The notes under the pieces were generated by a model that did not search any database, had not been told where the DNA came from, and was given only the letters and a program-made list of their open reading frames with translations. Shown here piece after piece: positions 104 to 63,039 of a stretch of 64,000 nucleotides of DNA; the first letter of the stretch is position 1, and every line of letters starts with the position of its first letter. Both the position numbers and the translations under genes were made by a program. Origin of the DNA: an uncultured bacterium (GTDB lineage: Bacteria > UBP6 > UBA1177); the NCBI GenBank assembly GCA_905233945.1, contig CAJOFY010000022.1:1490-65489 (forward strand), read 5' to 3'.

Positions 104-1720
104 TCAGCCATTTTTCCCTTTAAAAAAAGTAGAGGAAAATAAGAGCACGGACATGCAGAACACAACAATATCTGCCGCAAGGAGATTTCCGGCCATAAAA
201 TTTCCGGCAATCAGAGTCCCGGTCATCAGAAATGCGGAACTCATGCGTGTTATCATTTTTGACACAAATCTCCTCTCCGAAGTATTTAAAATAACCATCA
301 TTCTGTGCTGAATGGTACCGTTTTCCAGTTTTTCAGTGATGTTCGTTATCGAATCGGGCATGGCATGAATCGTATCCACGATTTTTTCGACCGCGCTCGT
401 CGCTTCGGCAGCGATGTTTTCAGGAGTGAATTTCTGCAGCATGACCTCTTTTGCAAGTTTCCCTGCAACGGTCATCAACTCGAAATCGGGGTCAAGTTTT
501 CTGCAAAGTCCTTCAATCATTGAGAAACTTTTTATAAGCTGGGTAAGTTCATGCGGAATTTTCAGTTTGTATTTAAAGATAACGACCGAAATTTTGCTGA
601 CGAGCTCTGCAGTGTTTATCTCGGCTAAATTATCAGGCAGATCCTGAAAAATATTGCTTAAATCGCGGACAAAAAGCTCTTTGTCGGGAATTTCCTCGCC
701 TTCGTTGAGCTCAAGGCAGATTCTTGCCGTTCTTTCCCAGTCTTTAGCGACAAAAGCAATAAAAAGATCAGCCAGCTTGTTGCGCATATACTTGTCGACA
801 TATCCGCACATTCCGGTATCTATAATAGCTATCTTGTTGTTTTTCTTAAAGAAAATATTGCCTTCGTGCAAGTCTGCGTGGAAAAATCCGTCGTTGAGAA
901 TCATTTTCATCAGAACATCCGCTCCGCGTTCGGCAATAATCCTTCTGTCAAAAAGCTCTTCGTTTTCCGGAAGTATCACTTCATCCAGCTTCATTGCGAA
1001 AATTCTTTCCATTACAAGCATGGCGCCGGTACAGTACTCGCTGTACATTTTAGGGAACTGAAGCCAGCTCCACTTAGGAGAACTGAAATTTCTGATGAAT
1101 TTTTCGTTGTTCGACTTTTCTATAAGCAGATTGAGCTCTGTGTTCATTGTCTGGAAAAACTCATCGGCTATGGCTTCAAAATCTATATTCTGCGAATAGG
1201 ATGTTTTGTTTATGTAGTGCGCAATCGTCAAAATGAGCCCCATGTCGTCACGGATTGTCTCTGTGATCCCCGGTTTTCTTACCTTTACAACAACTTTTTC
1301 GCCCGTTTCCTTCAAAGTCGCGCCGTAAACCTGCGAAATCGAGGCCGAAGCAATCGGATTTTCGTCAAATTCAGAGAAAACATCCTCTATTTTTGCACAC
1401 AATTCACTTTCAATTATCGGTTTCATCAGGTCGAATCCGATAGGTTTCACGTTGTCGGTCAGCTTTTTGAACTCTTCAGCCATCGTGGCCGGAATAATAT
1501 CGCTTCTGAGCGACATCATCTGCCCTAATTTTATAAAGGTCGTGCCGAGTTCCTCGAACGCCTCGCGGATATTTTTCTCAAGCCTGCCGTCGGTTTCCTC
1601 TTCCGAAGGTTTTTTGATTCCGAACTTTTTGAAAAGTGCCTGAGGAAGATACTTGCCGAGCCCGTGCTTGTTGAGAACGGCAATGATTTCCCTGGTTCTT
1701 TTAAATTTGTTAAGATCCAT
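104..1720 (-). CDS. ABC1/UbiB-family atypical protein kinase
   Basis: 538-aa ORF with N-terminal KxGQ-type ABC1 kinase motifs (…FIKLGQMMSLRSD…, HADLHEGNIFF, DTGMCG); full-length family architecture. Confidence 0.8.
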   Translation of the reverse strand: MDLNKFKRTREIIAVLNKHGLGKYLPQALFKKFGIKKPSEEETDGRLEKNIREAFEELGTTFIKLGQMMSLRSDIIPATMAEEFKKLTDNVKPIGFDLMKPIIESELCAKIEDVFSEFDENPIASASISQVYGATLKETGEKVVVKVRKPGITETIRDDMGLILTIAHYINKTSYSQNIDFEAIADEFFQTMNTELNLLIEKSNNEKFIRNFSSPKWSWLQFPKMYSEYCTGAMLVMERIFAMKLDEVILPENEELFDRRIIAERGADVLMKMILNDGFFHADLHEGNIFFKKNNKIAIIDTGMCGYVDKYMRNKLADLFIAFVAKDWERTARICLELNEGEEIPDKELFVRDLSNIFQDLPDNLAEINTAELVSKISVVIFKYKLKIPHELTQLIKSFSMIEGLCRKLDPDFELMTVAGKLAKEVMLQKFTPENIAAEATSAVEKIVDTIHAMPDSITNITEKLENGTIQHRMMVILNTSERRFVSKMITRMSSAFLMTGTLIAGNFMAGNLLAADIVVFCMSVLLFSSTFFKGKNG

Positions 1721-1728
1721 CTTTCACC

Positions 1729-2448
1729 TTACAGATAAGTTCTGACAAATATTTTGTCACGTTTCGTGATGCGCCTCATTTCCATCGCCATTCTTTCAAG
1801 CTGCTCCGTTGAATAGCTTTCCGATGCCTTCGCCTCAGCCGAATAAGCGTTGTCACAGATAAATTTCTGTAGATAATAAACAGCGTTTTCCGGAATAAAA
1901 TCAGCCATTTTGCAAAGACGCTCGTAACTTTCCACAAGTTTCGGATACATCGTCGTGCGGTATTCGACTTTAGAATTCGTCTGCTTTTCCAGAAGCTCTT
2001 TTGTGGCAAGAAGTTTCTGCTCGACCTCTTTTTTCGGAAGTTTGCAGCCGAGTTCGCCGTAAAGGTCGGGAGTCGTTTTTATGTCGATCGCGATATACGA
2101 AAGATAAGGCAAAATTTTTTCAATAAATTCAGGCTTTAATCCGTTTGAATCGATCTTCACGTCGATACCGAAACGCTCTTTTATCTCTTTCACAAGGTCG
2201 ATAAGTTCATCGTAAAGCGAAGTCTCTCCGCCAGAAAACGAAACACCGTCGATGAATTTCAGCCTTTTCTGGATATCGGAAATTATATAATCCCTCGAAA
2301 GCCATTTTTCCTGCGGCGGAACCTCGAAAAGCGAGGAATTATGGCAGTAAGGACAGCGGAGATTACAGCCCGAAAAGAAAAAAAGAGTCGCAATTTTTTC
2401 CGGAAAATCGACTAACGAAGTCTGGACCTGACCGGTTATCGGAAGCAT
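1729..2448 (-). CDS. radical SAM activating enzyme (anaerobic RNR / PFL-activase family)
   Basis: CNLRCPYCHN CxxxCxxC cluster near N-terminus, GGE motif (SFSGGETSL), ~239 aa typical of glycyl-radical enzyme activases. Confidence 0.65.
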   Translation of the reverse strand: MLPITGQVQTSLVDFPEKIATLFFFSGCNLRCPYCHNSSLFEVPPQEKWLSRDYIISDIQKRLKFIDGVSFSGGETSLYDELIDLVKEIKERFGIDVKIDSNGLKPEFIEKILPYLSYIAIDIKTTPDLYGELGCKLPKKEVEQKLLATKELLEKQTNSKVEYRTTMYPKLVESYERLCKMADFIPENAVYYLQKFICDNAYSAEAKASESYSTEQLERMAMEMRRITKRDKIFVRTYL

Positions 2449-2663
2449 TTTTCCCTCCTGAAAAACAAAAAACGCAGGATACTACCACAAAAGAGCAAAA
2501 AGGACAATTCTTTCAATACCCGAAAGCGATACGAAGCACGGATTTCAGCAATCAATCTCAAGAGAATTAAGCGGAAGTTTTTGTTAGCAAACCTTTCGAT
2601 TTGATTCCATCGAATGGGGGCATTGGGGAAGCTCTAAGCTGTTATTCTATCAATTTTTTGTCT

Positions 2664-3356
2664 CTAATCAGCTCTTCTGACACAACGGACACTGATACCA
2701 TTATCATCCACGCGGGTCATCCCCACCGAACCGGACATGAAATCCACAAAATAATGATAGGAACTGTCAGTGAAATTATCAAGGGCAGATGAAGACCACA
2801 GAGTAGTTTCCCTCGTCTCTCCAATATCCAATTTGCTGTATTGACCAGGATTGTCGAAATCGGAAGGGCAGCCGGAGCAGGCATCATTTCTGCAGTCAGA
2901 ATAAACCAGACAGTTGTTGGTAACTCCGCATTCTCCGCCAGTCTGTGTTGCAGGACAGTTCTTGATAAGAGAACGAAGCTCGTCGATAGTCGGCAAACGC
3001 CAGTTTGAATAACCGCATGCAGTCAGATTATCGCAGCCTGAGAAGGCATCATACCAACTATGGGAGTGCCACACTTCTGACCATATTCTGCCGTTTTCCT
3101 GAATGCATGAACCAGAATCAATGTCGTCGTTGTCATTTACAGAATCATCAGAGGAATCGCCGGAAAGCGAACCCGTTTCTCCCACGGAATCGCTGCCGTT
3201 ATCGGCTGTTTTTCCGGAATTGCCGCTGCCTCCGCAGCCAAAAATAACAAGCGACACGCAAAAAAGCCCTAAAACAATGATTTTCTTCATGAAACCCTCG
3301 AAATGAAAAGTGCATAAAATCAACGCAAAGCATAAAGAAAGTATGGATTTTTTCAA
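2664..3356 (-). CDS. secreted lipoprotein with Fib_succ_major/DUF1566 (Lcl C-terminal-like) domain
   Basis: Signal peptide plus lipobox (…VIFGCGGS), Ser/Asp-rich linker, conserved YSNWRLPTIDELRSL motif characteristic of Fibrobacter major paralogous domain. Confidence 0.7.
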   Translation of the reverse strand: MKKSILSLCFALILCTFHFEGFMKKIIVLGLFCVSLVIFGCGGSGNSGKTADNGSDSVGETGSLSGDSSDDSVNDNDDIDSGSCIQENGRIWSEVWHSHSWYDAFSGCDNLTACGYSNWRLPTIDELRSLIKNCPATQTGGECGVTNNCLVYSDCRNDACSGCPSDFDNPGQYSKLDIGETRETTLWSSSALDNFTDSSYHYFVDFMSGSVGMTRVDDNGISVRCVRRAD

Positions 3357-4130
3357 TTACGCTTTTCTGTTCACCAGATGATAGTCTCTCTGCGCTGTCG
3401 GATAAATTATCATGTCTGAAACATTGACGTGCGGAGGTCTTGTGACAACATAAAGAACCGCGTCGGCGATGTCTTCTGCGTGGAGCGGCTCGTAACCTTC
3501 GTAAACTTTGTCGGAGCGGGCCTGATCACCTTCAAATCTGACCATGCTGAACTCTGTTTCGACTGCGCCGGGATCGATCGTGGTCACGCGCAGCGATGTT
3601 TTGAGAAGATCTTTTCTGAGACCGTTCGTTATCGCGTTGACGGCATGTTTTGTAGCGCAATAGACCGTGCCGCCGGGATATGTTCCGCGTCCTGCGGTCG
3701 AACCGATGTTTACGATGTGACCTTTGTCGCGTTTTACCATTCCTGGAAGGACGGCTTTCGTGACATAAAGCAGACCTTTGACGTTCGTGTCGATCATCTG
3801 CTCCCAATCGGAAATTTTGTTGTCGTAAAGCGGCGTCATGTCTTTTGCAAGGCCGGCGTTATTTACCAGAATCTCAATATTTTTAAATGCTTTTGGAAGT
3901 TTCGCGAAAAATTTTTCGACATCTTTCTGGTTTCTGACATCAAGAACTCCGCCGAAGCATTTGATTCCGTATTTTTCAGTCAGATACTCCGCGAAATCTT
4001 TGATTTTATCCTCTCTTCTCGCCGAAATTACAAGGTTGCAGCCAGCTTCCGCCAGAGCTTCGGCAGTTGCCGCGCCTATTCCCGAACTTGCACCCGTCAC
4101 ACATGCGGTTTTTCCAGAAATATCGAACAT
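3357..4130 (-). CDS. short-chain dehydrogenase/reductase (NADP-dependent, YdfG-like)
   Basis: TGASSGIGAATA Rossmann motif; NNAG; YxxxK catalytic region (YCATKHAV). Confidence 0.8.
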   Translation of the reverse strand: MFDISGKTACVTGASSGIGAATAEALAEAGCNLVISARREDKIKDFAEYLTEKYGIKCFGGVLDVRNQKDVEKFFAKLPKAFKNIEILVNNAGLAKDMTPLYDNKISDWEQMIDTNVKGLLYVTKAVLPGMVKRDKGHIVNIGSTAGRGTYPGGTVYCATKHAVNAITNGLRKDLLKTSLRVTTIDPGAVETEFSMVRFEGDQARSDKVYEGYEPLHAEDIADAVLYVVTRPPHVNVSDMIIYPTAQRDYHLVNRKA

Positions 4131-36778: not shown

Positions 36779-37624
36779 ATGGTTAAATTCATCGGCGCCC
36801 ACATTTCGGCGGCGGGCGGAGTCGAAAACGCTCCGAAAAACGCGGCTGAAATCAACGCTACGGCTTTCGCTCTCTTCACGAAAAATCAGAAACAGTGGTT
36901 CGCTCCGGCGCTTTCCGCTGCTTCAATCGAGGCTTTCAAAGAAAAATGTGCTGAACTTCATTTTGCCGCACATGCGATCCTTCCGCATGACAGCTATCTC
37001 ATAAATCTCGGGCATCCGGCTGATGAAGGGCTTCAGAAATCACGGAATTCCTTTACTGACGAGATGAAACGCTGCGAAATTTTAGGGCTCGACAGGCTCA
37101 ACTTTCACCCCGGAAGCCATCTTCGTGAAATCACCGAAAGCGAGTGCCTTTCAAAAATCGCAGAATCGATAAATATCGCGCTCGATAAGACAAAAGGGGT
37201 CACCGCAGTCATCGAAAACACGGCGGGACAAGGCTCAAATGTAGGATACAGATTTGAACATCTTGCCGAAATTATTGACAAAATTGAAGATAAATCGCGA
37301 GTCGGGATCTGCATCGACACCTGCCACGCCTTTGCCGCGGGATACGACCTTACGACACCTGTTGCCTGTGAAAAAACTTTCAGCGAACTCGATAAAACTG
37401 TGGGACTCAAATATCTTCGCGGAATGCACTTCAACGATGCGAAAAAAATGCTCGGAAGCAAGGTCGACAGGCATGAAACTCTCGGTAACGGCGCGATCGG
37501 AATAGAGTGCTTCAAATGGCTCGTTGAACAGCCTTTCACCGACAATATTCCGTTGATTTTAGAGACTCCGGAGCCCGAAAAGTGGCCGAAGGAAATAGAA
37601 CTGCTCAAAAGTTTTGTAAAATAG
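36779..37624 (+). CDS. nfo: endonuclease IV (AP endonuclease)
   Basis: [12 protein letters not shown]-terminus; TIM-barrel AP endonuclease 2 metal-ligand pattern. Confidence 0.85.
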
Positions 37625-37632
37625 GAGGCCAA

Positions 37633-39231
37633 ATGAAACTTCTTGTAACGATCCTTTCGCGTCAGACAGTCGTTCAGGCGTCGCTTATCCGCGAAGCTGC
37701 TCCCGATGTCATAATTTTTGTCTCGACCGTGATGGCGCAGGAGAACGACTGGCACAAAAACATTCCGGTTTTAGTAAAGCGCGCTGACGGCGAAGACATT
37801 AAGTATATTAATGTTTTTATTGAAAAAAATATGAATCTGGGTGAAATCATCGAGATGCTCAAAAGGCGTGTCAGAAGCGTTTTCGATGAATACGGGATCA
37901 CCGAGATCTACTGCGACGCCTCCTGCGGAAAAGGGATCCACAGGATCGTTTTCGCCGAGTATCTCAAGCGTTTTTCCGAAAAGCAGGACCTCGGTTTTTT
38001 CCTCGTCTATTTCGATCTCGATACGCGTCAGATCAATAAAATCGCGATAAAGGAGCAGTCTTTCCACGAATACAAATCCTCGGTTTCGATCGACTGGCAC
38101 TTGAAGGAGCGTCTTACCCTTTACGGAGCTGAACTTACTGATTTTCTTACGATTTATGACGGAAAAACGAATTATTTCGCAGAAAACGGAGAGCAGTTTG
38201 AGGAACTTTACACAAACCTCTGCAACTCCATGAATCTGCGGGCTTTTTTCTCGTCCTACGACAACATGAAAACGATCATCGACCTCAAAGGGGAACTTCA
38301 CGATTTCATGGTGAAAAACTTCCGCGACGAGCAGATCGACAAGTTTTTGCAGAGGATTTTCGGCGTAATGCCGCACCTTCGCCCCGAAATAAACGAAGCT
38401 AAAAACGAAATCAGGGTAAAACTTACCGATTTCTTTAACGAAATGAGCCACAGAAGAGAACTTCAGACTTTTTCTGATTCTTTTGATTTCAGGACGACTC
38501 TCGCAAGCTGTCAGAAAAAGTTCAACGCCGAAATGCCGGATGCAGTCATAAGAAAGATCCTTCCGCTCGCCGGAGAAGTCGACAAAGCCGACCTCAGAAG
38601 CGATGTCCAGCACTTTTTAGATGTTCTTTTTTCCAAAATTTCGGAAAAAACGAACTCTCTCGCCGATGTCAAAAGCATAGATGTCACTGCGGCCGTTTTC
38701 AACCGCTTCAAACAGAAATATGTGAAAGAAATCGAGCGCGAAAGCACCCTCAACACACGCTCGCAAATATCTGTGATCTTTGAAAAAATCATAAGTTACG
38801 CCGTGTGCCGCGCAATGGAGAAGTATCCGCTTCTGAAAGAGTCGATCGCATCGGTTTTCCAGAACGTGAAACTGAGCGGAAAAGCAAGTTCGCTCATTGA
38901 AATCGACACGCTCGTCGTCTTCAAAAACGGATACCTCCACATCCTTGAGGCAAAAAGCTCGCATGTTTCCAACAAAGACCTCAATTCGCGGATCTTAGTC
39001 ATGAAAAAATATCTCGGAGAAAGCGTAGGAATGGATATCGTCTTCCCCTTCACGGCGCACGACATCCGGATGTTCATGGAAAAAAACGATCCCTTTATCC
39101 GCAAATTCTACAGCAAAGGCTTGAAATCGGCGGCAGGCTGGGGCACATTCTTCGCTACAACTGACAAAACAGTCACCCCGATCGACAGGATCGCCGAAAG
39201 GCTCCGCGACCTCGCGATGATGTACAGCTGA
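37633..39231 (+). CDS. Card1/Can2-like protein: N-terminal CARF-like Rossmann domain fused to a C-terminal PD-(D/E)xK (restriction-endonuclease-like) nuclease domain
   Basis: N-terminus LLVTILSRQT… (beta1 plus S/Q loop) and DASCGKG motif at ~aa 110, consistent with CARF. C-terminus …IEID-x14-LEAK… (D…ExK), the same Asp-to-Glu spacing I recall for Card1's catalytic D/E/K. AGGAGG RBS 4 nt before ATG; 8 nt after the nfo stop. Confidence 0.5.
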   Translation: MKLLVTILSRQTVVQASLIREAAPDVIIFVSTVMAQENDWHKNIPVLVKRADGEDIKYINVFIEKNMNLGEIIEMLKRRVRSVFDEYGITEIYCDASCGKGIHRIVFAEYLKRFSEKQDLGFFLVYFDLDTRQINKIAIKEQSFHEYKSSVSIDWHLKERLTLYGAELTDFLTIYDGKTNYFAENGEQFEELYTNLCNSMNLRAFFSSYDNMKTIIDLKGELHDFMVKNFRDEQIDKFLQRIFGVMPHLRPEINEAKNEIRVKLTDFFNEMSHRRELQTFSDSFDFRTTLASCQKKFNAEMPDAVIRKILPLAGEVDKADLRSDVQHFLDVLFSKISEKTNSLADVKSIDVTAAVFNRFKQKYVKEIERESTLNTRSQISVIFEKIISYAVCRAMEKYPLLKESIASVFQNVKLSGKASSLIEIDTLVVFKNGYLHILEAKSSHVSNKDLNSRILVMKKYLGESVGMDIVFPFTAHDIRMFMEKNDPFIRKFYSKGLKSAAGWGTFFATTDKTVTPIDRIAERLRDLAMMYS

Positions 39232-39235
39232 TTTT

Positions 39236-41692
39236 TTAGTCCAGAATCCCGGTTTCTTTCAGCAGATTTTCCGTGTCGTATTCCGCAAGTTCTTTGCGGT
39301 AGCCGTTTTTGATTATGTGGTATTCGCCGGTGAAGGCGTCGAATTTCTTCATTACGCTTCCGAGTTCTGTGTAATGGCGGATCGTCATTTCAAGAGTTTT
39401 GTCATTAAAATCAACGACTTCCAGGATCTCTGTTGCTGAATCGTAGTCTGATTTTTCGAAAAATTTCACGCGGTATGTGCTTGAAGGAAGGGTGCGGAGG
39501 ATCTTTTCCGCTTTTTTGATCTTTTCGCGGTCGCAGAAGGCAAAAGTGAGGAATTTTATTCCGGAATTTTCAAGAATCGAGTTGAGCTTCTCCAGAGTTT
39601 CAGCTTCGTTGACTTCCTCGGTGAGCCATACCGTGCCGAATTCCTCGTCGACTTCGACTCCGACCGGTGCGGGAAACGCCAGATTGAAGCGCGGCATGGG
39701 GTGAAAACCGTCGGAATAGAGGATCTTGAGGTCGCTCAGAGTGAGAGCTTTGAAGAGAAATGAAACAAGGTCAAGGTGTCCTACACTTATCGAATTTCCG
39801 TGTTTCGAAAGCGAGAAAATGTATGGAAAAGAGTTGTTTTTATTGCTTTTTTCGGGAATTTCAAAAGTCTCGTTCTCGTCAAGCGCCTTTCCGGTGAACT
39901 TCAGCGGCCTGATCTCCTTGAAGTCGCACGCGCCACACTTGTTGCAGATACCCGTTTTCGCGCAGTCGGGCGTTTCCTGAAAATTGAACGCTTTTTCGCG
40001 CTCTTTCAGAAGAAATCTGCGATCGATCCTGAGATCTATATGCTCGTAGGGAAGAGGCTTATCCAGCGGTTTTTCAAGGTAAGTGCTTTCCGGGTCTATC
40101 CCTGCATAAGCCAAACCTTCGTCCCAGAGAGCAGGATCAAAACTTTCGTCTTCCGTCTGGAGGCCTTTCATATTTTTCGCAACAAATTCAATGACTTTGC
40201 CGTATTCACGTCCTGCACGGCTGAGGTATCCTTCGACTGTGCTGATCTCCTGATCGTGCCATGCGAGTTTCAGATTTCTTATGCCGCGGAGGTTTTCGAT
40301 TATGATTTTCTGCTTTGCCTTGATTTCGGCAGGGCTCGACATCTTTTCCCACTGGAAAGGGGTGAAAGGCTGCGGCACAAAAGTCGAGAAACTTGCACTA
40401 AGCATAGCCTTTTTACCGAATCTTTTCACGTAGTTGCACATCTTTTTGACGAGTTCTACCGTCTCAAAAAGATCCTCCTCCTCTTCATGCGGAAGGCCGA
40501 GCATAAAGTAGAGTTTGACCGCCTGCCAGCCGTTTGAAAATATCGTGTTGAGAGCGTTCAGCAGGTCTTCGACGCTGTTGCCCTTGTTTATCATTTTGCG
40601 AAGCCTGTCGCTTCCAGATTCGACCGCGAGAGTGAAACCGACTTTGCGCCCTTTTCTTATCGCGTGGGTGATTTTCGGTGTGATCGTCTCAGTCCTGAGG
40701 CTCGGAAGCGAAACCGAGATCCGGCGGCTGTAACGGCTGTATGAGCGGACCAAAATATCCTCGATCTCGCTGTGGTCGGCAGCCGAAAGCGAGAGAAAAC
40801 CCGCCTCGTCGTAGCCCGAAGTTCTGACTACTCTGTCAAGAATTTCGCAAATATTTTCAGCACTTTTCTCTCTGTGCGGGCGGTAGAACATACCCGCCAT
40901 GCAAAATCTGCACCCTCTCGTGCAGCCGCGCATTATTTCAATCGTGAAGCGGTCGTGGATCGTCCTCATCGCAAATATCGGAGCGTCAAAAAGCGAGTCG
41001 GGATCGTAGTTGAGATCCTTTAGGACCGCTCTTCTCGCTTCAAAACCCGAAAGCGAGCCGTCGGGATTGATTTTGACAGAGTTTTCATCGTGCTTCGACG
41101 GAATATAGATTGCCGGAATTTTGGAAAAAGCCTCGATCCTCTTCTGTTTTTCTTTAATATTTTCAAGAATATCCATAAATTCTTCGGCGTAAGGCTCAAA
41201 CTCGCCGATCGAAACCATATCAATGAAATCAGCCATCGGCTCAGGATTGCACATGACAGGCCCGCCAGACCAGATTATCGGATAATCACTTGAATTTATT
41301 CTATCTTTTGAATGGATCGGAATGCCTGCGATATCCATGATCTTAAGAAAATCAGGATATTGCAGCTGATACTGGAAAGAAACTGCAATGATATCGAAAT
41401 CACGGTAATTCACCCCGTGCATCATCGAAGTGAGCCCGCCGCTCGCCTTTGCCTCCTCAAACACATCCTTCTGCGGCGAAAAACCGAAATCTACCAGAAA
41501 TCCTCGGCGGTTAAAGAGCGAATAGAGTATCTTCACCCCCGTGTGGCTTTGCGCCATCTCGAAAAGATCAGGAAAAAGTATCAGTATTTTCGGCTTATTA
41601 GGATCAGTTTTCACCTTTACAGGCTCGATAAACGGAGCAAAATAACGCCCGGGCTTTTCGATCCTGCGCAGAAAAGAAGTTATGAGTTTCAA
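39236..41692 (-). CDS. B12-binding-domain radical SAM protein fused to DUF2344-like C-terminal region
   Basis: 818 aa; N-terminal B12-binding-like region, CTRGCRFCMAG rSAM cluster, long C-terminal extension; widespread conserved protein of unknown function. Confidence 0.7.
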   Translation of the reverse strand: MKLITSFLRRIEKPGRYFAPFIEPVKVKTDPNKPKILILFPDLFEMAQSHTGVKILYSLFNRRGFLVDFGFSPQKDVFEEAKASGGLTSMMHGVNYRDFDIIAVSFQYQLQYPDFLKIMDIAGIPIHSKDRINSSDYPIIWSGGPVMCNPEPMADFIDMVSIGEFEPYAEEFMDILENIKEKQKRIEAFSKIPAIYIPSKHDENSVKINPDGSLSGFEARRAVLKDLNYDPDSLFDAPIFAMRTIHDRFTIEIMRGCTRGCRFCMAGMFYRPHREKSAENICEILDRVVRTSGYDEAGFLSLSAADHSEIEDILVRSYSRYSRRISVSLPSLRTETITPKITHAIRKGRKVGFTLAVESGSDRLRKMINKGNSVEDLLNALNTIFSNGWQAVKLYFMLGLPHEEEEDLFETVELVKKMCNYVKRFGKKAMLSASFSTFVPQPFTPFQWEKMSSPAEIKAKQKIIIENLRGIRNLKLAWHDQEISTVEGYLSRAGREYGKVIEFVAKNMKGLQTEDESFDPALWDEGLAYAGIDPESTYLEKPLDKPLPYEHIDLRIDRRFLLKEREKAFNFQETPDCAKTGICNKCGACDFKEIRPLKFTGKALDENETFEIPEKSNKNNSFPYIFSLSKHGNSISVGHLDLVSFLFKALTLSDLKILYSDGFHPMPRFNLAFPAPVGVEVDEEFGTVWLTEEVNEAETLEKLNSILENSGIKFLTFAFCDREKIKKAEKILRTLPSSTYRVKFFEKSDYDSATEILEVVDFNDKTLEMTIRHYTELGSVMKKFDAFTGEYHIIKNGYRKELAEYDTENLLKETGILD

Positions 41693-41897
41693 AATATTCT
41701 CCTAAAACATGAATGTTTTCAGCAATTTACTCAATTTATTCAATTAAAAGAACTCTTGTCAAAAAACGGCAACACTTTAAGGGAAATTGCAGAAAATGCA
41801 AGAGTTTGCGGGCGAGCAGGCCACATTCAGCTCAACGAATACGAACACTCATTTTGCGGTCAAAAATTTTGACCGTAGAAAAGCGCGTTATTCAGCA

Positions 41898-41944
41898 GTT
41901 AAAACGGCAAATTTTGTAATTTTGTAAAAAGTTTACGGTTTAAC
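41898..41944. repeat. islet boundary repeat, copy a (GTTAAAACGGCAAATTTTGTAATTTTGTAAAAAGTTTACGGTTTAAC)
   Basis: Two further copies at 43116-43162 and 45716-45753 (consensus TTAAAGCGGTARATTTTGTGATTTTGTAAAAAGTCTACGGTTTAAC). Confidence 0.8.
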
Positions 41945-41970
41945 TTGAGAACAACGGATAATTTTTGGTT

Positions 41971-42118
41971 TACCACGGAACCGAGATAAGTCCGGAAAAA
42001 CCCATGAATGCAAGTGAGAGAAGACATGCTGTGACGAGCGCAGTCGCCTTGCCTCAAAACCATTCCCCGGAAATCCCGTTGCAGGCTTTTTTCAAGAGTT
42101 CAATGCCGGATTTTTACT
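41971..42118 (-). pseudogene. diverged duplicate of the rnfA 3' end (encodes …ALVTACLLSLAFMGFSGLISVPW* on the minus strand) plus shared downstream sequence
   Basis: Minus-strand translation matches the RnfA C-terminus (…[25 protein letters not shown]) with an in-frame stop just upstream; ~85% nt identity to the authentic 46502-46580. Confidence 0.75.
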
Positions 42119-42719
42119 GTTTTTTCCCGATCTCGCGGACTTTCCCAATGATTTCATTGATTTTGTCAAGCGTCATATCCGCGATACTGTTTTCTTCCGC
42201 GGTTTTCCTCATGTTTTCAACTGCGGAAACTACATTGTCATATTGAATGTATATTTTTTCCAGCAATTTTATATCACAGCATCTTTGTTTTATTCTGATT
42301 TCGTAATCTGCGAGTTCGCTGTCATCAGAAAACAGCAATTCCCTAAGTAAATTAGCAGTTTTTTGTATTTGAATCGTGTCGCTGCGGATAGCTTTGTATT
42401 GATTCTGCAAAAGACGACGGTATTTGTCATCGCCGATTTTCTCTATTTCAATAAGGATTAAAGCCGAATCTGTTACCGGAATCATATTGCTAAAATTGAT
42501 CGCTCCATACAAACCGGCAGATATTTTCCTGAAATCAATAGTATTTTTCATAGTTTTGTGCTTTGGCTTGGGTGAAGAGAACGGCGCATAATATTTAACA
42601 GAACCTATTTCAAGAACGATTCCGACATAAGGTCTTGTTTCGTGCTTGTTGTCGGCGACTTTAGCGTCATATTTCCTAAGAAAGTCTATGTAATCGTCTT
42701 TCACATGATAGAATCTCAT
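42114..42719 (-). CDS. ToxN/AbiQ-family endoribonuclease toxin (type III toxin-antitoxin)
   Basis: 201 aa; N-terminus MRFYHVKDDYIDFLRKYDAKV…YVGIVLEIGSVKYYAPFSSPKPKH closely parallels ToxN (MKFYTISSKYIEYLKEFDDKV…FIGIVLEIQGHKYLAPLTSPK). Confidence 0.8.
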   Translation of the reverse strand: MRFYHVKDDYIDFLRKYDAKVADNKHETRPYVGIVLEIGSVKYYAPFSSPKPKHKTMKNTIDFRKISAGLYGAINFSNMIPVTDSALILIEIEKIGDDKYRRLLQNQYKAIRSDTIQIQKTANLLRELLFSDDSELADYEIRIKQRCCDIKLLEKIYIQYDNVVSAVENMRKTAEENSIADMTLDKINEIIGKVREIGKKQ

Positions 42720-42730
42720 TTTTCCCCCTA

Positions 42731-42764
42731 AAAAAACAAAGGGCGGATAAACCGCCCTTTTTTA
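42731..42764 (-). terminator. intrinsic terminator between the toxI-like repeats and toxN (GGGCGG-UUUAU-CCGCCC plus U-run on the minus-strand transcript)
   Basis: 6-bp GC stem followed by UUUGUUUUUUU; same position as the attenuating terminator of characterised ToxIN loci. Confidence 0.65.
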
Positions 42765-42765
42765 A

Positions 42766-42900
42766 GTCCTCTGTTGTGGTCGAGGCTCACCGCTTTTTTA
42801 AGATTTCACTTAATGGTAGAAACTCACCGCTTTTTTCGGTTTCCAATTAAGGTCGGAACTTACCTGCGTCAAAAACTTTAGTCACTTTTTATTTAAAGTC
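42766..42900 (-). ncRNA. candidate ToxI-like antitoxin RNA: ~2.5 tandem 37-nt repeats (plus-strand units CTCACCGCTTTTTT-N23 at 42786-42822 and 42823-42859, partial unit 42766-42785)
   Basis: Direct tandem repeats immediately upstream (minus strand) of toxN and separated from it by a terminator; canonical type III TA arrangement. Confidence 0.65.
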
Positions 42901-42956
42901 AATAGATTTTTACAATAAATTAGAAATTTCTAAAGAATCTGTGAAGATTTTTAGTC

Positions 42957-43100
42957 TACCACGGAACCGTGATAAGTCCGGTGAAACCCATGAACGCAAG
43001 TGAAAGAAGGCCGGCGGTGACAAGCGCGATCGGCTAGCCTCAAAACCATTCCCCGGAAATCCCGATGCAGGCTTTTTTCAAGAGTTCAATGCCGGATTTT
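42957..43100 (-). pseudogene. second diverged duplicate of the rnfA 3' end (encodes [25 protein letters not shown])
   Basis: 26 codons identical or conservative to the RnfA C-terminus with many synonymous nt changes; upstream in-frame stop marks the crossover point. Confidence 0.75.
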
Positions 43101-43115
43101 CGACAGATCATGCCG

Positions 43116-43162
43116 CTTAAAGCGGTAAATTTTGTGATTTTGTAAAAAGTCTACGGTTTAAC
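43116..43162. repeat. islet boundary repeat, copy b
   Basis: See copy a. Confidence 0.8.
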
Positions 43163-43192
43163 CTAAAATTTTTGGATATTACAAAAACTAGG

Positions 43193-43621
43193 TTAAATGA
43201 AGACCTTCTCTATTTCTTCGAAGTTTTCATGTTTATATTTTTCAAACTCTTTCCTAAGACGGCTCTCTTTGGAAATATACAAATATTGGTTATTACTCTG
43301 TTTCCTCTTTCTGTAAACTGTTTGTTTCTGAGCTTTCAGCTGCCGTTCGACATCCCGCTTTGTTAAAAACAAATAAGCGGGTTCACTATCTTTTGTTTCA
43401 AGCACCTCTATCACAAAAAAATCGTTCTTGTCTTTAATCACTATAGAATTGTTTATGCTACGATTATCCATAGTTACAATATTTACTTGGATCCTTTTCA
43501 GTTTGTTTTCAGGCATAATCACAAGAATTTCGCGTTCTTTTCTGGTGGTACACGCAGAATAAAAAACTTCTCCACAACTGCTTAAGCCCTTAAGTATCAA
43601 TTTATAATTATTTTTTGACAT
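43193..43621 (-). CDS. hypothetical basic protein (142 aa) encoded downstream of the rSAM maturase
   Basis: GGAGAA RBS before ATG 43621; Lys/Arg-rich C-terminal half; no confident family assignment (weak, unconvincing GIY-YIG-like spacing). Confidence 0.4.
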   Translation of the reverse strand: MSKNNYKLILKGLSSCGEVFYSACTTRKEREILVIMPENKLKRIQVNIVTMDNRSINNSIVIKDKNDFFVIEVLETKDSEPAYLFLTKRDVERQLKAQKQTVYRKRKQSNNQYLYISKESRLRKEFEKYKHENFEEIEKVFI

Positions 43622-43651
43622 ATTTTTCTCCACTACAATTGATAAGAATTT

Positions 43652-44923
43652 TCAAACTGAGAGATTGGCTCTCTCTTCCAACTCACGAAGAGCCATTTCT
43701 TTTGTAAAATTACACAATTCAGCAAAATCTTTATCCGAGTAGGCAAGCTTATTACTGCAGCATTGGCTGTTGCAGTGATACTTCATAAAACAAGTTTCGC
43801 ATTCCTTAACCCTTTTTCTCTCATATAAATCACTAATACTTTTCATTTTATTTTCATCTACTAGCACAGCGTCGTTGCTTACGACACCATATTTCAACTG
43901 TTCAAATGCCAGAGCTCTGTTGTTGGAATTCCTGTGGCATGCGACAATGTCTCCTGACGGAGTAACACAAAATTCTCCACCACAAAAACGATTCCTGATA
44001 GATTGCAATGAATTTATTACGGAATTTCTCAAATAAATATTTTTGGTTTTTGCAACAGCCTTGGCTTTAAAAAAATAATTCATAAAATCATGATAATAAT
44101 TTTCCCATGTCAATCCTGGCATAGACACAAGTTCTAAATGAATTTTTCTGATTTTCGGATAATTTTCCGATACATACTCAACCATTTCCGGCATTTTTTC
44201 TACAGCTGTCTGCGTAATTGTAGTTCTAAAACCGAAATCAACTCCATTTTCAGCTAATAAGTCTATTGAATTTTTCACATCAACAAAACTTCCTTTTCCG
44301 GAAGGATAAGGGCGTTGTATGTTTTGAATTTCAGGGAGAATGTCGAAAGAACATCCAATATGAACCTGATTTTTCACAAGCCACTGTATTCGTTCAGCAT
44401 TCAGCAAAGTCGTGTTGGTCGTCAAACTTATACTTACTTTTTGATCTTTCTGCAGTTTTCTTATGTATTCAACAGCCCAAACAAACAACTCCCATTTTAC
44501 ACAAGGTTCTCCGCCGCCGATAAAAGAAAAATGCTTGCCTTTTGTTCTGCTGCTAAAAATAAAATCTATCGTGTTTTTCAGTTTATCTTTTGTCAGAGTC
44601 TCTGCAGAATGTTGTTCATGCGCATAACAATAAGTGCAAGCAAGATTACAAGCCTCCGTCAATATAAATACCGTATGTCTTTTCTTCATGCCGAATCCGT
44701 AATATTTATGGACTGTTGCATCTTGAGTTGACATAAGATCTGAAATTCTCTCATCCAAATCTGTATCGCAGCATCCACCATTTTTGAAAGATTTTTCTAT
44801 TTCGACAGCCTCGACATCTTTTGTGTAAAAAAGCCGCCTTTTCAACGGAGCATAAACTATATGCGTATTTTTTAAATGAGACTCCAACAAAAAAATTTCA
44901 TCCCCAAGACTCAGATATTTCAT
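43652..44923 (-). CDS. radical SAM / SPASM-domain peptide maturase with probable N-terminal RRE-like region
   Basis: CNLACTYCYA CxxxCxxC; GGGEP; C-terminal auxiliary-cluster cysteines (CGGEFCVTPSGDIVAC…CETCFMKYHCNSQCC) typical of SPASM/twitch RiPP maturases. Confidence 0.75.
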   Translation of the reverse strand: MKYLSLGDEIFLLESHLKNTHIVYAPLKRRLFYTKDVEAVEIEKSFKNGGCCDTDLDERISDLMSTQDATVHKYYGFGMKKRHTVFILTEACNLACTYCYAHEQHSAETLTKDKLKNTIDFIFSSRTKGKHFSFIGGGEPCVKWELFVWAVEYIRKLQKDQKVSISLTTNTTLLNAERIQWLVKNQVHIGCSFDILPEIQNIQRPYPSGKGSFVDVKNSIDLLAENGVDFGFRTTITQTAVEKMPEMVEYVSENYPKIRKIHLELVSMPGLTWENYYHDFMNYFFKAKAVAKTKNIYLRNSVINSLQSIRNRFCGGEFCVTPSGDIVACHRNSNNRALAFEQLKYGVVSNDAVLVDENKMKSISDLYERKRVKECETCFMKYHCNSQCCSNKLAYSDKDFAELCNFTKEMALRELEERANLSV

Positions 44924-44949
44924 CTGAAATTTTTCCTCACCCTAAATCA

Positions 44950-45129
44950 TTAATCAAAGCAATCATTATCATTGCAGTGATAATCCATACCGCAACCATT
45001 ATCATCACAGTCAAACGAACAAACATCGCATTTGTCATCACACATACAATCACACCAATCAACATTGCAAAAGTTGGAATTTTTGCTTGCACTCGCTTCT
45101 TCCAAACTGATCAAATCTGAAATAATCAT
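44950..45129 (-). CDS. candidate RiPP precursor peptide: 20-aa leader plus 39-aa core with 10 Cys and 13 Asp (CNVDWCDCMCDDKCDVCSFDCDDNGCGMDYHCNDNDCFD)
   Basis: GGAGAG RBS 6 nt before ATG 45129; 26 nt upstream of the rSAM-SPASM gene; recurring Cys-x(1-3)-Asp spacing as in freyrasin-type ranthipeptides. Confidence 0.6.
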   Translation of the reverse strand: MIISDLISLEEASASKNSNFCNVDWCDCMCDDKCDVCSFDCDDNGCGMDYHCNDNDCFD

Positions 45130-45352
45130 TTTTCTCTCCACGAAAAAATTAATAAAAAATACTATCTGAAACGGGACTCCCGAAACAGTCTTTTTTGAAA
45201 AATCATAATAACTTACCCCCCTCCCGACTACGGAAACGCAGGATTCCGGCAATATTTTAACGTTTTATTTACTATTAGTCAACACAATATTTACCAATAG
45301 TCAAAAAATATTTTCTGTATGTGCTATATTGAAAAAAGGAGGTGGTTTGAGT

Positions 45353-45664
45353 ATGGATGGCAAAACACTTGGCAAGCGGGTGAAAGCATTAAGGCGTAAA
45401 GCCGGAATAACGCAGCTTGATCTCGCGTGCCGGGTAAATATCAGCGAAAGCTACATCGCGTTGATAGAAGCCGACAAACGAAAACCTGGAATGGATATAA
45501 TCTCTACTTTGGCAAACGAATTTCATGTCTCTGTTGACTATCTTTTAAGCGGCAAAATATCAGAAGAAGACAACCTCATGCTCAAAGAATGGACATCTCT
45601 TATAAAGGAAAGACCTCTTAAAATCGTCCGCACTTTTTTTGAATGTGTGGACAGCAAAAAATAA
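45353..45664 (+). CDS. XRE-family helix-turn-helix transcriptional regulator
   Basis: HTH_3 signature (ITQLDLACRVNISESYIALIE); divergent from the precursor peptide gene; AGGAGG RBS. Confidence 0.75.
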   Translation: MDGKTLGKRVKALRRKAGITQLDLACRVNISESYIALIEADKRKPGMDIISTLANEFHVSVDYLLSGKISEEDNLMLKEWTSLIKERPLKIVRTFFECVDSKK

Positions 45665-45715
45665 TTTTCATTTTTGCGATCGGATTTTCGACCGCAGAAA
45701 CTCGCGTTTTTTGCC

Positions 45716-45753
45716 GTTTAAAGCGGTAGATTTTGTGATTTTGTAAAAAGTCT
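45716..45753. repeat. islet boundary repeat, copy d (truncated)
   Basis: GTTTAAAGCGGTAGATTTTGTGATTTTGTAAAAAGTCT; abuts the 3' end of the PIN gene. Confidence 0.75.
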
Positions 45754-45760
45754 GGAGATA

Positions 45761-46174
45761 TCAAAGTTTTTTCAGTGCTTCATCAACGCTGATTGCCGGA
45801 ATTTTAGAGTTTTTGAAATCTTTGAGATTTTCGGTAACGATGTAATCAAGATCGGCGTTCTCGGCACATTTCATCTGTAATCCGTCTTCGAGATCGAAAA
45901 AATCAGGATCGTTAAGAACTTCAAAAAAATCTTCCTGATATTCAGCAATTACTTGAAAGTTTGAAACTATCAAAAGTAAAAACTCTCTTCTGTCTGCAAC
46001 CGAAAAAAACTTTCTCGTGATATAAAAAATATCTGTCAGCGAGTGTGCGGAAACAAAACCGTTAAGTTTTTTGGCAAGACACTTTTTTACAAGCAGCGAA
46101 GCTTTCTCGTGAAACGGATTATTCGGCGTGAGATAATAAAGAATAATATTCGTATCAACAAAGATATTCTTCAT
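45761..46174 (-). CDS. PIN-domain (VapC-like) toxin
   Basis: 137 aa; N-terminal IFVDTNI with conserved acidic PIN residues; 4-bp overlap with upstream antitoxin gene. Confidence 0.7.
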   Translation of the reverse strand: MKNIFVDTNIILYYLTPNNPFHEKASLLVKKCLAKKLNGFVSAHSLTDIFYITRKFFSVADRREFLLLIVSNFQVIAEYQEDFFEVLNDPDFFDLEDGLQMKCAENADLDYIVTENLKDFKNSKIPAISVDEALKKL

Positions 46175-46413
46175 ACCCCATACCTCTCGTCAAGGTATTC
46201 AAGATATTCCTGCCGTGCATCGATCTGTTTGTCACTTTTGATGCAACCATTGAATTTTTCGAACAATCTCATTGTTTCTTCCTTAGACATTCCGCCTTTT
46301 TCTTCATGCTTTTTTTCATTCATGTTTCCGAGCGAAACGACTAAATTGTAGATTATCGTCTGCTGCTCAGTTGTAAGTGCGCTCAACGCTTTTTCGAAAA
46401 CTTCGAAGCTCAT
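46171..46413 (-). CDS. small antitoxin-like protein of the PIN TA pair
   Basis: 80 aa, precedes and overlaps the PIN gene; GGAGG RBS before ATG 46413. Confidence 0.55.
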   Translation of the reverse strand: MSFEVFEKALSALTTEQQTIIYNLVVSLGNMNEKKHEEKGGMSKEETMRLFEKFNGCIKSDKQIDARQEYLEYLDERYGV

Positions 46414-46501
46414 TTTAACCTCCATTCCGCAAAAACTCTTCTATTATACTCAATTTTTTTAGAAATGCGAGAGGAAATTATCAGGAATCAATGATGTGAA
46501 T

Positions 46502-47089
46502 CTACCACGGCACGGCGATGAGTCCTGTGAAACCCATGAACGCAAGTGCGAGAAGACCTGCGGTGACAAGTGCGATCGGTGCGCCTTTCATAGCTTCGGG
46601 GATTTCGTAAAGCTCAAGGCGTTCCCTGATTCCTGCAAAAATTACGAGTGCCAAGAAGAAGCCGAGAGCGGTCGCGATCGTGTAAACTACGCTCTGGAGA
46701 AGTTCGTAGTTTTTCTGCGTTACGAGTATCGCAACACCGAGAACGGCGCAGTTCGTCGTGATGAGCGGAAGGAATACGCCGAGAGCCTGATAAAGCGGCC
46801 GTGACACTTTTTTCAGAATGATTTCAACCATTTGTACAAGTGCAGCGATGACAAGGATGTATGCGACCGTCTGCATAAATTCGATGTGAAGCTTTGTCAG
46901 AACAGCCTTGTAGAGAATGTGCGTAACTGTCGTAGCCAAGGTCATGACGAAAAGGACAGCCGCGCCCATTCCGACCGAAGTCGAAACTTTGTTCGAAACA
47001 CCGAGGAAGGGGCAGATTCCCAAAAACTGCGCGAAAACGATGTTGTTTACGAGGATCGCGCTGATGAAAACAAGAATATATCCGGTCAT
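46502..47089 (-). CDS. rnfA: Rnf electron-transport complex subunit A
   Basis: 195-aa polytopic membrane protein; conserved RnfA/NqrE-family sequence. Confidence 0.85.
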
Positions 47090-61685: not shown

Positions 61686-63039
61686 TTATTTGTTAAATTC
61701 GTTAAGTTTGTCTTCTAGAAGTTTTTTGATCTCGGCCATTCTTTCAGGTGTTTCGGCTTCGACTCTCATGACGATGACATTCTGCGTGTTGCTCGGTCTC
61801 ATAAGTCCCCAGCCGTCTTTGAAAGTGACTCTGACACCATCGATGTCGTTGACTTCGTAACCACCGTTTTTGAAGAAATTGACAACGTTTTCAACTATCT
61901 GGAACTTTTTCGTCTCGTCGACTTCGATCCTGAGTTCGGGTGTCGAGAATGTTTCGGGGATCCCTTCAAGAAGTTTGTCGAAATCTGCTCCGTGTTTTCC
62001 GATTATCTCAAGCATTCTGAAAGCGGAATAGATCGCGCAGTCATATCCGAAGAAGCGCTGTTTGAAGAAAACGTGTCCGCTCATTTCGCCGCCGAAAGCA
62101 GCTCCTATCTCTTTCATTTTCGCTTTTATCAGCGAATGTCCCGCCTTCCACATTACAGGTTTGCCGCCGTGAGCCGCGATGTCGTCGTAAAGAGTCTTGC
62201 TGCACTTTACATCGCCGACGATCGCCGCGCCGGGAACTTCTTCGAGGACACTTCTTGCAAAAATATTGAGGATCTTGTCGCCCCAGATGATCTTTCCGTT
62301 TCTGTCAACGATTCCTATTCTGTCCGCGTCGCCGTCAAAACCGATGCCAAGATCGGCTTTGTTCTCTTTTACCGCCGCGATCATCTTCTGGATATAAGCC
62401 TCGACCGTCGGATCGGGGTGATGGTTCGGGAACCTGCCGTCCGGCTCTTCGAAAATGCTGATGACGTTGAGTCCCATTTTGCGCATGATCGGAACCGCAA
62501 CAAAGCCGCCGACGCCGTTTCCTGCATCGACAACGAGCTTGATTTTTTCTGGATGTTCGATGTGTATCGTCTTGAAAATGAACTTTTCGAAGTCAGGAAT
62601 TATGTTGTATGTGCTGTTTGTTCCCTTTTTCTCCGGGTTGAGGAAGTCATCAGCCTCCGATCCCGTCACCGTAAACCGGCAGATCGATGAGGTTGACCTT
62701 GAAGCCGTTGTATTCAGGCGGATTGTGGCTTCCGGTAATCATGACCGCGCCCTGAACATCGATGTTGAACATCGAAAAATAGCAGAGTCCCGTCGGGATC
62801 ATGCCGAGAAAAATCGTGTCGATTCCGCTGTCGTTGAAACCTTTTATCATAGCCTGTGCAAATGACGGCGAACTCAGTCTCGCGTCGTGACCGATCGAAA
62901 CTGTCTTGAAAGAAGGAAGTTTTTTCTTGTAGAAACTTGCGCACCCCCGTGCCAGATTGTAGGCGAAATCGTCAGTTAAATCGACATTTACATAGCCTCT
63001 GACATCGTACTGCCTGAAAATTGTTCTGTTGATTTTCAT
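61686..63039 (-). pseudogene. phosphomannomutase/phosphoglucomutase-family gene split by an apparent frameshift at ~62650-62670
   Basis: N-terminal ORF (62650..63039) carries the TGSHNPPEYNGFK active-site loop and stops after …VYGDGIGG*. The C-terminal ORF (61686..62669) continues in the -1 frame with canonical domains II-IV (GFDGDADR metal loop). A 1-nt indel in GGAGG joins them. Confidence 0.6.

Follow-up and report, generated by a model that had tools for sequence, protein, structure and literature searches.

How did the 3' end of a housekeeping gene come to be followed by further copies of itself, with unrelated accessory genes lying between them? The question is raised by a locus in 64,000 nucleotides of DNA from an uncultured bacterium (GTDB lineage Bacteria; UBP6; UBA1177; contig CAJOFY010000022.1, positions 1,490 to 65,489), which we call the window. 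In this locus rnfA, the final gene of the rnfCDGEA operon, is separated from a gene for a B12-binding radical S-adenosylmethionine (rSAM) protein by toxin–antitoxin (TA) and other accessory genes, among which lie two orphan copies (stubs) of the rnfA 3' end. Comparison with related loci showed that the site is a genuine insertion hotspot. We consider it probable, at roughly 60%, that the interval between rnfA and the B12-rSAM gene is an accessory-gene hotspot that grows by displacement of the rnfA 3' end and does so free of any integrase.

The window features that carry this argument are given here. R denotes a 46-nt repeat and 'shared' a 60-nt segment, and both are described below. HTH is helix–turn–helix, ORF is open reading frame, and RiPP is ribosomally synthesized and post-translationally modified peptide.

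46502-47089, minus strand: rnfA, full length and functional, 195 aa (PF02508, E 2.5e-60).
46502-46586, minus strand: functional rnfA tail, the last 85 nt including the stop codon; left direct repeat of the newest unit, with an AGGC junction.
43041-46586, minus strand: unit 2, the newest, 3,546 nt, defined by tail-repeat spacing; tail, PIN-TA pair, R3, HTH gene, RiPP-like cluster, 146-aa ORF, R2, B-tail and 'shared'.
43041-43162, no strand: conserved right end of unit 2, made up of R2 (43117-43162), B-tail (43101-43116) and 'shared' (43041-43100).
42956-43040, minus strand: stub 2 (p2), a tail repeat; the earlier rnfA 3' end, now displaced, including its stop codon.
42055-43040, minus strand: unit 1, 986 nt, defined by tail-repeat spacing; tail, toxI-like repeats, terminator, ToxN and 'shared'.
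41970-42114, minus strand: 'shared' copy 1 (42055-42114) joined to stub 1 (p1, 41970-42054), the oldest and most decayed stub.
41801-41969, no strand: native-type downstream region, with a 25-nt spacer, R1 (41899-41944) and an A-tail with a hairpin; collinear with the empty site L009.
39236-41692, minus strand: B12-binding rSAM gene (TIGR03960 and TIGR03936), right flank of the hotspot.

Read in the direction of rnfA, the order is rnfA, antitoxin and PIN toxin, R3, the HTH gene (on the reverse strand) and a small Cys/Asp-rich ORF; then an rSAM/SPASM maturase-like gene, the 146-aa ORF, R2, B-tail, 'shared' and p2; and then the toxI-like repeats, a terminator, ToxN, 'shared', p1, the 25-nt spacer, R1, A-tail and the B12-rSAM gene. 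Every related locus that extends far enough has the last of these as its right flank.

A sequence-only reading of the window had placed the end of rnfA at 46502 and two further copies of its tail, ~85% identical to it, at lower coordinates. Both points held. The last ~85 nt of the gene are present three times, at 46501-46586 (functional), 42955-43040 (p2) and 41969-42054 (p1), with p2 85% and p1 83% identical to the real tail, and the window holds three occurrences of a tail 20-mer, where 0.01 would be expected. An in-frame stop precedes each stub, as had also been stated. The same reading held that both stubs encode the identical 26-residue C-terminus and called them protein-conserving. By contrast, we found that p2 differs from the real RnfA at 2 of 24 residues and p1 at 7 of 26, where the nucleotide alignment indicates a two-codon deletion. 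The p2 sequence is 91-93% identical to the rnfA tail of a related locus (L006), and near-identical copies of p1 are present in L005, L010, L091-96, L107 and L110. The stubs diverge because they began as functional rnfA alleles of related lineages, and their divergence is not a sign of selection on them.

What had been overlooked is the 60-nt 'shared' segment: it is fused to both stubs, upstream of them in the rnfA sense, so that a 154-nt repeat with 89% identity results. 'Shared' terminates in AGGCG even where no tail lies behind it (L006, L010), which is a 5-nt microhomology with rnfA at -86 (negative positions are nucleotides upstream of the rnfA end; L-numbers are related loci in other genomes). 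The complete end consisting of R, B-tail and 'shared' trails at least five different cargoes in L006, L008 and L010. We considered 'shared' as a small ORF of 23 aa and dropped the idea, judging by eye that the frame is not kept in the L010 copy. Separately, 22-24 nt of 'shared' (42078-42101 and 43066-43087) are the inverted complement, at 77-79%, of 41750-41773 in the native promoter region of the B12-rSAM gene.

To place the array among its relatives, we used two sets of loci. Scanning for RnfA in one genome per species gave seven metagenome-assembled genomes from rumen and gut with 94-95% RnfA identity, and exact-protein look-ups with ToxN and an RnfA homologue gave ~25 further contigs. Among genomes whose RnfA is 94-100% identical there are ~21 architectures between rnfA and the rSAM gene. 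The shortest distance from the rnfA stop to the rSAM start is 43 nt in L103, a virgin site with neither R nor a stub. The gap is 278 nt in L009 and L116, where it consists of spacer, R and A-tail, 898 nt in L102, where it holds the PIN-TA pair alone, and at most 8,486 nt (L010). Thus the empty-site relatives that the sequence-only reading proposed to look for exist. The counterpart of the native-type downstream region directly adjoins rnfA in L009. An array of like kind was also found in a lineage with only 83% RnfA identity (L114, L115). The cargo of these loci includes TA and abortive-infection systems (PIN, RelBE, HigBA of the Gp49/HTH type, MNT/HepT, AbiEi/Eii, ToxIN and Abi_2), AAA_14/DUF4143 ATPases, SLFN/AlbA_2, DUF1016 nucleases, RhuM, two kinds of rSAM/SPASM cluster, DUF3791/DUF3990 and many small secreted proteins with an Lcl_C domain.

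Intermediate states of the array are preserved among these loci. In L098 a full-length rnfA with its stop codon is followed by the toxIN unit, 'shared', a stub, and then spacer and R of the L009 type; the inserted piece is 986 nt long and is flanked by 86-nt tail repeats. This is the predecessor state of the window, with a full rnfA at the position now held by stub 2. Because p2 occupies the place of the functional tail of L098, the 3,546-nt unit from tail to 'shared' was added later. Likewise, L101 equals L102 plus a 588-nt unit, carrying a gene for a 161-aa Lcl_C protein, that lies ahead of the PIN-TA pair between 86-nt tails. Both the toxIN (986 nt) and the Lcl_C (588 nt) unit are thus flanked by 3' ends of the target gene, of which the empty sites (L009, L116, L102, L103) have one copy. 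In L100 the order is toxIN, 'shared', tail and PIN-TA, the opposite of that in the window. Empty sites, single-unit intermediates and this reversal of order support serial addition of modules beside rnfA, with older tails pushed outward. The idea of serial integration at the rnfA 3' end therefore stands as regards addition and displacement (L098, L101 against L102, and L100). Site-specific integration is not supported, as no recombinase was found in the window or the related arrays and the stubs have about ten boundaries.

Across loci the 5' ends of the stubs fall at about ten positions between -147 and -26:

About -147: L114.
About -104 to -125: L110, and L004 in deleted form.
-86: junction with 'shared' (three tail alleles) and, in L101, with the end of the Lcl_C161 gene.
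-70: L006 and L104, behind an AAA_14 gene.
-65 and -37: L108 and L109.
-35: L114.
-26: L005 type.

The same junction of 'shared' and tail is found twice in the window and in L005, L008, L010, L098, L100 and L110. The allele of a stub tracks its downstream neighbour, not the upstream one. One tail allele precedes the PIN-TA pair in the window, L004, L090, L100, L101 and L108, and this allele is constant, be the tail that of a full rnfA or a stub of 86 or 37 nt. Similarly, the tail that has 'atccacatt' and Abi_2 behind it is cut off at -70 in L006 and, in L114, at -35. The stub of L098 is chimeric, with 57 nt of p1 type followed by 29 nt and a spacer of L009 type. The left junctions vary as well (+1, +9, +25). 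Of the virgin spacer, ~25 nt are retained by a 175-aa cassette and 9 nt by the L104 cassette, which weakens the proposal of a fixed insertion point at the stop codon. Finally, L114 carries stubs of the window-type allele, its own rnfA tail (83% RnfA identity) being quite different, which indicates that stubs travel with modules between lineages. The architecture, the empty sites, the intermediates, the reversed order and the transfer across lineages are all observed directly.

As a further observation on stubs, a 104-nt rnfA stub in L110 (8858-8961) has its stop codon altered to CAG. The toxIN genes expected after it are deleted, and ~255 nt remain before the next 'shared' and stub. This region illustrates the decay of older units.

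The surroundings of the stubs are mosaic. Blocks that are 98-100% identical are set among core genes that are 85-93% identical. One of them is the toxIN block, which in the window and L005 is 99.6% identical over ~1,045 nt and ends inside R1; others comprise PIN, R and HTH (L004 against L089) and R and RelB (L088 against L089), and mosaic tracts were also seen within rnfE and rnfA. Apparent crossovers lie at differing places: at -86 in L100, at about -30 in L098, and at the stop codon in L004 against L089. Comparing the identity of the rnfA body with that of its tail, as a test for a foreign functional tail, gave no significant discordance.

We then asked what might have joined these modules to rnfA. 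As the sequence-only reading had noted for the window, Pfam and NCBIfam scans detected no integrase, transposase or resolvase among the cassette genes or the otherwise unidentified ORFs of the window; the other window ORFs were identified as housekeeping genes by reading their translations. There was likewise no recombinase among the 34 cassette protein families of seven related loci or in the precomputed Pfam columns of ~25 further loci. We infer that no dedicated integrase is involved and, likewise, which enzymes would do the joining. A new module would be joined so that a complete rnfA is kept, while the former tail and everything behind it are pushed outward as a stub. The window would have received at least two such additions, the 986-nt toxIN unit and then the 3.5-kb unit with PIN-TA, HTH, the RiPP-like cluster, R and 'shared'. 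The first joint between cargo and an rnfA fragment may have arisen by illegitimate, microhomology-type recombination anchored by rnfA homology. Later spread, swapping and reordering between genomes would be the work of ordinary homologous recombination, for which the rnfA tails, R, the HTH gene and the flanking core genes could supply portable homology. The varied truncation of the stubs, the alleles tied to the downstream neighbour, the chimeric stubs and the travel across lineages fit such a mixture of homologous and illegitimate recombination.

This anatomy appears to match that of the rhs, cdiA and type VI secretion system (T6SS) effector–immunity loci, in which a conserved gene acquires a new 3' module and its previous 3' end, along with the partner genes, moves downstream (Jackson et al. 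2009; PMC5361080). For the addition step there, illegitimate recombination facilitated by homology was proposed, with homologous exchange thereafter (Kirchberger et al. 2017, PMC5361080). As in those arrays, an intact gene is followed by orphan 3' fragments, each tied to its former downstream genes, the newest module adjoins the gene, there is no integrase and the locus is made mosaic by homologous recombination. The variable truncation (-147 to -26) and the AGGCG microhomology also resemble the rhs and T6SS arrays, and AGGCG is the one joint for which the donor sequences are known. The tips of the rhs, cdi and T6SS genes, however, encode differing toxins with matching immunity genes, a diversity under selection, whereas at rnfA the anchor is a housekeeping membrane subunit of Rnf, the C-terminus encoded by the tails is essentially constant and the cargo has no connection with Rnf. 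A literature search on rnfA as an integration site returned nothing relevant; as far as that search shows, rnfA has not been described as such a hotspot before, and the type of process is already known.

Several observations weigh against integrase-free growth. Two left partners that are unrelated to each other ('shared' and, in L101, the end of the gene for the 161-aa Lcl_C protein) join rnfA at exactly -86, at AGGC. We estimate the likelihood of one chance coincidence among ~10 junction types at roughly 25%, which makes this double use suggestive, not significant. Between L004 and L089, identity over the PIN cassette is 100% and sets in no more than 9 nt from the rnfA stop codon, whereas the tails have 11 differences. 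This boundary looks like a fixed crossover point, though general mosaicism could yield it. These two observations are the best points for a site-specific enzyme and neither is statistically compelling. In addition, an 86-nt tail with 85-97% identity is a poor substrate for RecA, and the R-flanked TA cassettes described next (RelBE in L085; MNT/HepT in L106 and L114) hint at a second, possibly site-specific process. Lastly, the relatives were read over ~10 kb around each locus, and a recombinase may be encoded elsewhere in a genome.

The R repeat is present in the window at 41899, 43117 and 45718 with 72-91% identity between copies, which bears out the three copies of a ~47-bp repeat listed in the sequence-only reading, and its core occurs only these three times in 64 kb against an expectation of 0. 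The 27-nt core, ACAAAATCACAAAATTTACCGCTTTAA, is 93-100% conserved across more than 25 copies, even between lineages with only 83% RnfA identity. R lies at the 3' ends of modules and is invariably oriented like the cassette genes. It has short, imperfect terminal inverted repeats (GTTAAAC...TTTAAAC), and the conserved right end of ~135 nt formed by R, B-tail and 'shared' contains direct ACAAAAT repeats. The antisense strand of R scores as a weak intrinsic terminator. The third copy in the window is distinct:

45686-45763, no strand: R3, a copy of R without the left arm plus an A-like tail with a hairpin (repeat comparison); on the plus strand, after the HTH gene, it has a weak terminator score.

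R had been taken as a delimiter separating all three cassettes, and this did not hold, as R1 lies between stub 1 and the B12-rSAM gene. R is not the delimiter or attachment (att) site of the units because the rnfA tails flank them, because R is missing from several arrays (L101-L103, L105, L108) and because it is present at other loci. In L085 (8800-9730) a RelBE cassette upstream of the mraZ/dcw cluster has a copy on either side; further copies away from rnfA lie near murJ (L087:12503-12529) and at L084:688-721. The RelB(E) cassette found behind R at the rnfA locus (L004, L088, L089, L090) is 81-88% identical to the one at mraZ. Direct repeats of R flank MNT/HepT in L106 (10607-11640) and in the distant L114 (12328-13388), two lineages with only 83% RnfA identity. 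The core is 96-100% conserved in all these copies, and R is a recombination junction in several pairwise comparisons. It is a separate module-end repeat that does not bound the tail-flanked units. Readings of R as a dif/Xer-like site, a Tn7-end-like sequence or a Bacteroidetes-like promoter were dropped, as none gave a convincing match by eye, and R had no match in Rfam. A phage or plasmid origin was rejected because the R and 'shared' motifs are absent from IMG/VR. It is conceivable, if rather unlikely, that the R core and rnfA -86 are sites of an undescribed, trans-encoded cassette recombination system that is not an integron. If so, TA and defence cassettes would be moved from species to species and among several hotspots of the chromosome (rnfA, upstream of mraZ, near murJ).

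Behind the 3' ends of some core genes, such as fda of Streptococcus thermophilus, integrative and conjugative elements (ICEs), integrative and mobilizable elements (IMEs) and cis-mobilizable elements (CIMEs) accrete, and staphylococcal cassette chromosome (SCC) elements form composite islands at rlmH. The rnfA array shares with these its tandem, recombinase-less islets behind a core gene, the duplication of the 3' end at the boundaries, the intact target and the empty sites in relatives. Its units might, in line with the sequence-only reading, be CIME-like or satellite-like elements lacking an integrase, with 'shared' plus the rnfA tail as attP and a tyrosine or serine recombinase acting in trans, crossing over at about -86 (AGGC) or at the stop codon. 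The 86-nt direct repeats around units whose empty sites have a single copy, and the restoration of rnfA every time, would follow naturally, and the use of -86 by two unrelated cargo ends with three tail alleles, together with the sharp identity boundary at the stop codon between L004 and L089, speaks in its favour. So does the ~135-nt right end behind at least five cargoes, the ACAAAAT repeats of which could be arm-type sites. However, in ICE, IME, CIME and SCC arrays the att core is fixed and at least one element in the array or genome brings a known integrase (Int or Ccr), whereas no recombinase was found in the ~21 architectures or the 64-kb window, and about eight stub boundaries other than -86 occur here, as do variable left junctions. 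Later deletion cannot explain those stubs longer than 86 nt (-104 to -125, -147), the crossovers lie at three places (-86, about -30 and the stop codon) with left junctions at +1, +9 and +25, and 'shared' and R are not in IMG/VR. We regard recombination in trans as unlikely. Improbable, in our judgement, is that the stub junction arose once, through a single tandem duplication or amplification running from rnfA -86 as far as the end of 'shared', and that the cargo was later replaced copy by copy. The identical 'shared'/tail junction in the window (twice) and six other loci and the AGGCG microhomology at the joint agree with it, but it leaves unexplained the Lcl_C junction at -86, the AAA_14 junction at -70 and the junctions at -147, about -104 to -125, -65 and -37, as well as clean single-unit insertions relative to empty sites in differing backgrounds. 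Such a duplication overlaps with growth by 3'-end displacement and is one possible route to its first joint.

An integron-like origin can be put much lower still. A cluster of attC sites lacking an integron-integrase (CALIN), with R as attC, would account for small and often TA-encoding cassettes in one orientation, a repeat at each 3' end in the sense of the genes, and the newest cassette nearest the fixed end. TA-rich cargo is typical of sedentary integrons, R flanks lone TA cassettes (RelBE in L085, MNT/HepT in L106 and L114), and it does carry terminal inverted repeats. Sites of the attC type, however, form stable hairpins as single-stranded DNA, with R and L boxes and AAC/GTT triplets, as in the chromosomal integrons of Treponema (PMC3607928). 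R as single-stranded DNA gave -1 to -6.5 kcal/mol (z -1.2 to +0.9 against shuffles), with no stable fold and no R''/R' architecture, and the repeat of tail plus 'shared' (148 nt) folded no better than shuffled sequence. Moreover, there is no intI and no PF00589 in the window region, the unannotated window ORFs or the ~21 related arrays, many cassettes are multigene with their own regulators (the divergent HTH) and promoter-like sites, unlike integron cassettes with their single promoterless ORF, or rarely up to three, several arrays are without any R, and the gene-tail stubs have no counterpart in integrons. The CALIN reading is close to refuted. Assembly chimerism as the source of the stubs and repeats, a possibility already named for the stubs, is the least credible of these alternatives and in our view extremely improbable. 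The data are metagenomic, and assemblers can be misled by repeats of 50-150 nt, but the window array was recovered at 99.7% identity in an independent scaffold (ERZ28573570) and as two overlapping pieces in ERZ27234821, and related arrays are present in dozens of assemblies (ENA, JGI, NCBI, Logan). Independent assemblies carry the array, and it is therefore not an assembly artefact.

Growth by 3'-end displacement can also be set beside turnover between core genes. In Neisseria, 'minimal mobile elements' exchange accessory genes between core genes by homologous recombination in the flanks, and Oliveira and co-workers reportedly described hotspots between core genes in 2017. The rnfA interval resembles both in its accessory turnover between two conserved core genes without mobile-element machinery. 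Those systems replace their content, and unlike the rnfA interval are not predicted to leave serial truncated copies of a flank or a dispersed repeat such as R.

The cargo of the two window units is as follows.

46171-46425 and 45761-46174, together 45761-46425, minus strand: type II TA pair of an 84-aa putative antitoxin and a PIN toxin (PF13470, E 3e-12).
45329-45664, plus strand: XRE-family HTH regulator, divergent from the RiPP-like operon (PF12844 and PF01381).
44950-45129 and 43652-44923, together 43652-45129, minus strand: RiPP-like pair of a Cys/Asp-rich 59-aa ORF and an rSAM/SPASM maturase-like gene (PF04055).
43193-43633, minus strand: 146-aa ORF (no Pfam or NCBIfam match).
42114-42890, minus strand: type III TA system (toxIN), with ToxN at 42114-42719 (PF13958, E 2e-50).

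The domain matches PF13470, PF04055 and PF13958 agree with the three cassettes (PIN-type TA, RiPP-like and type III TA) recognised in the sequence-only reading. An exact-protein look-up of PIN gave matches from the window's own strain only. Its cassette elsewhere (L102) sits directly between rnfA and the rSAM gene. For the maturase-like gene, the top NCBIfam match is the PapB ranthipeptide maturase, at 137 bits and under the cutoff. L089 and L090 are otherwise collinear but lack the 146-aa ORF, which is placed between the rSAM/SPASM stop and R2; its borders carry no repeat. Unit 1 is 99.6% identical to its counterpart in L005. Its ToxN gene is preceded, as in type III TA systems, by tandem toxI-like repeats of 37 nt (42777-42850; two copies with 78% identity plus a degenerate third) and an intrinsic terminator (42738-42760) between these and ToxN. 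TRF reported no array in the toxI-like repeat region, and an Rfam search gave no match at toxIN and only chance-level matches region-wide, with no structured RNA.

The XRE HTH regulator is a conserved anchor adjoining differing operons across related arrays. The divergent gene and its promoter region are conserved beside unlike operons in L004 (4170-8200), L105, L110, L010 (12571-14426) and the window (43652-45664), including two kinds of rSAM/SPASM peptide cluster and trios of small secreted Lcl_C proteins. The regulator and R behave as if they were a reusable frame holding exchangeable cargo.

Two observations lie outside the interval. The far side of the B12-rSAM gene is a synteny breakpoint too (window 104-4130 and 37582-39231 against L091, L107, L108 and L110). 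In several relatives a short-chain dehydrogenase/reductase, an rSAM activase and a UbiB kinase come after this gene; in the window these sit ~35 kb off, and a 549-aa ORF without a Pfam or NCBIfam match takes that place. In addition, a phosphoglucomutase/phosphomannomutase gene (61686-63039, minus strand) is split into two overlapping ORFs of 129 aa and 327 aa, which is either a frameshift or pseudogene or a sequencing error.

At the rnfA locus a housekeeping gene, and not a polymorphic toxin gene, anchors a displacement array. Modules for defence, TA and RiPP functions build up at this site and pass between rumen species, apparently without a mobile-element enzyme. If growth by 3'-end displacement is correct, integrase-free hotspots elsewhere could be found through orphan stubs of core-gene 3' ends, and such stubs would also record the order of acquisition. 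The ~21 architectures found among RnfA alleles that are nearly identical make the locus well suited, as a natural system, to gauging the rate at which defence and TA cargo turns over in gut communities.

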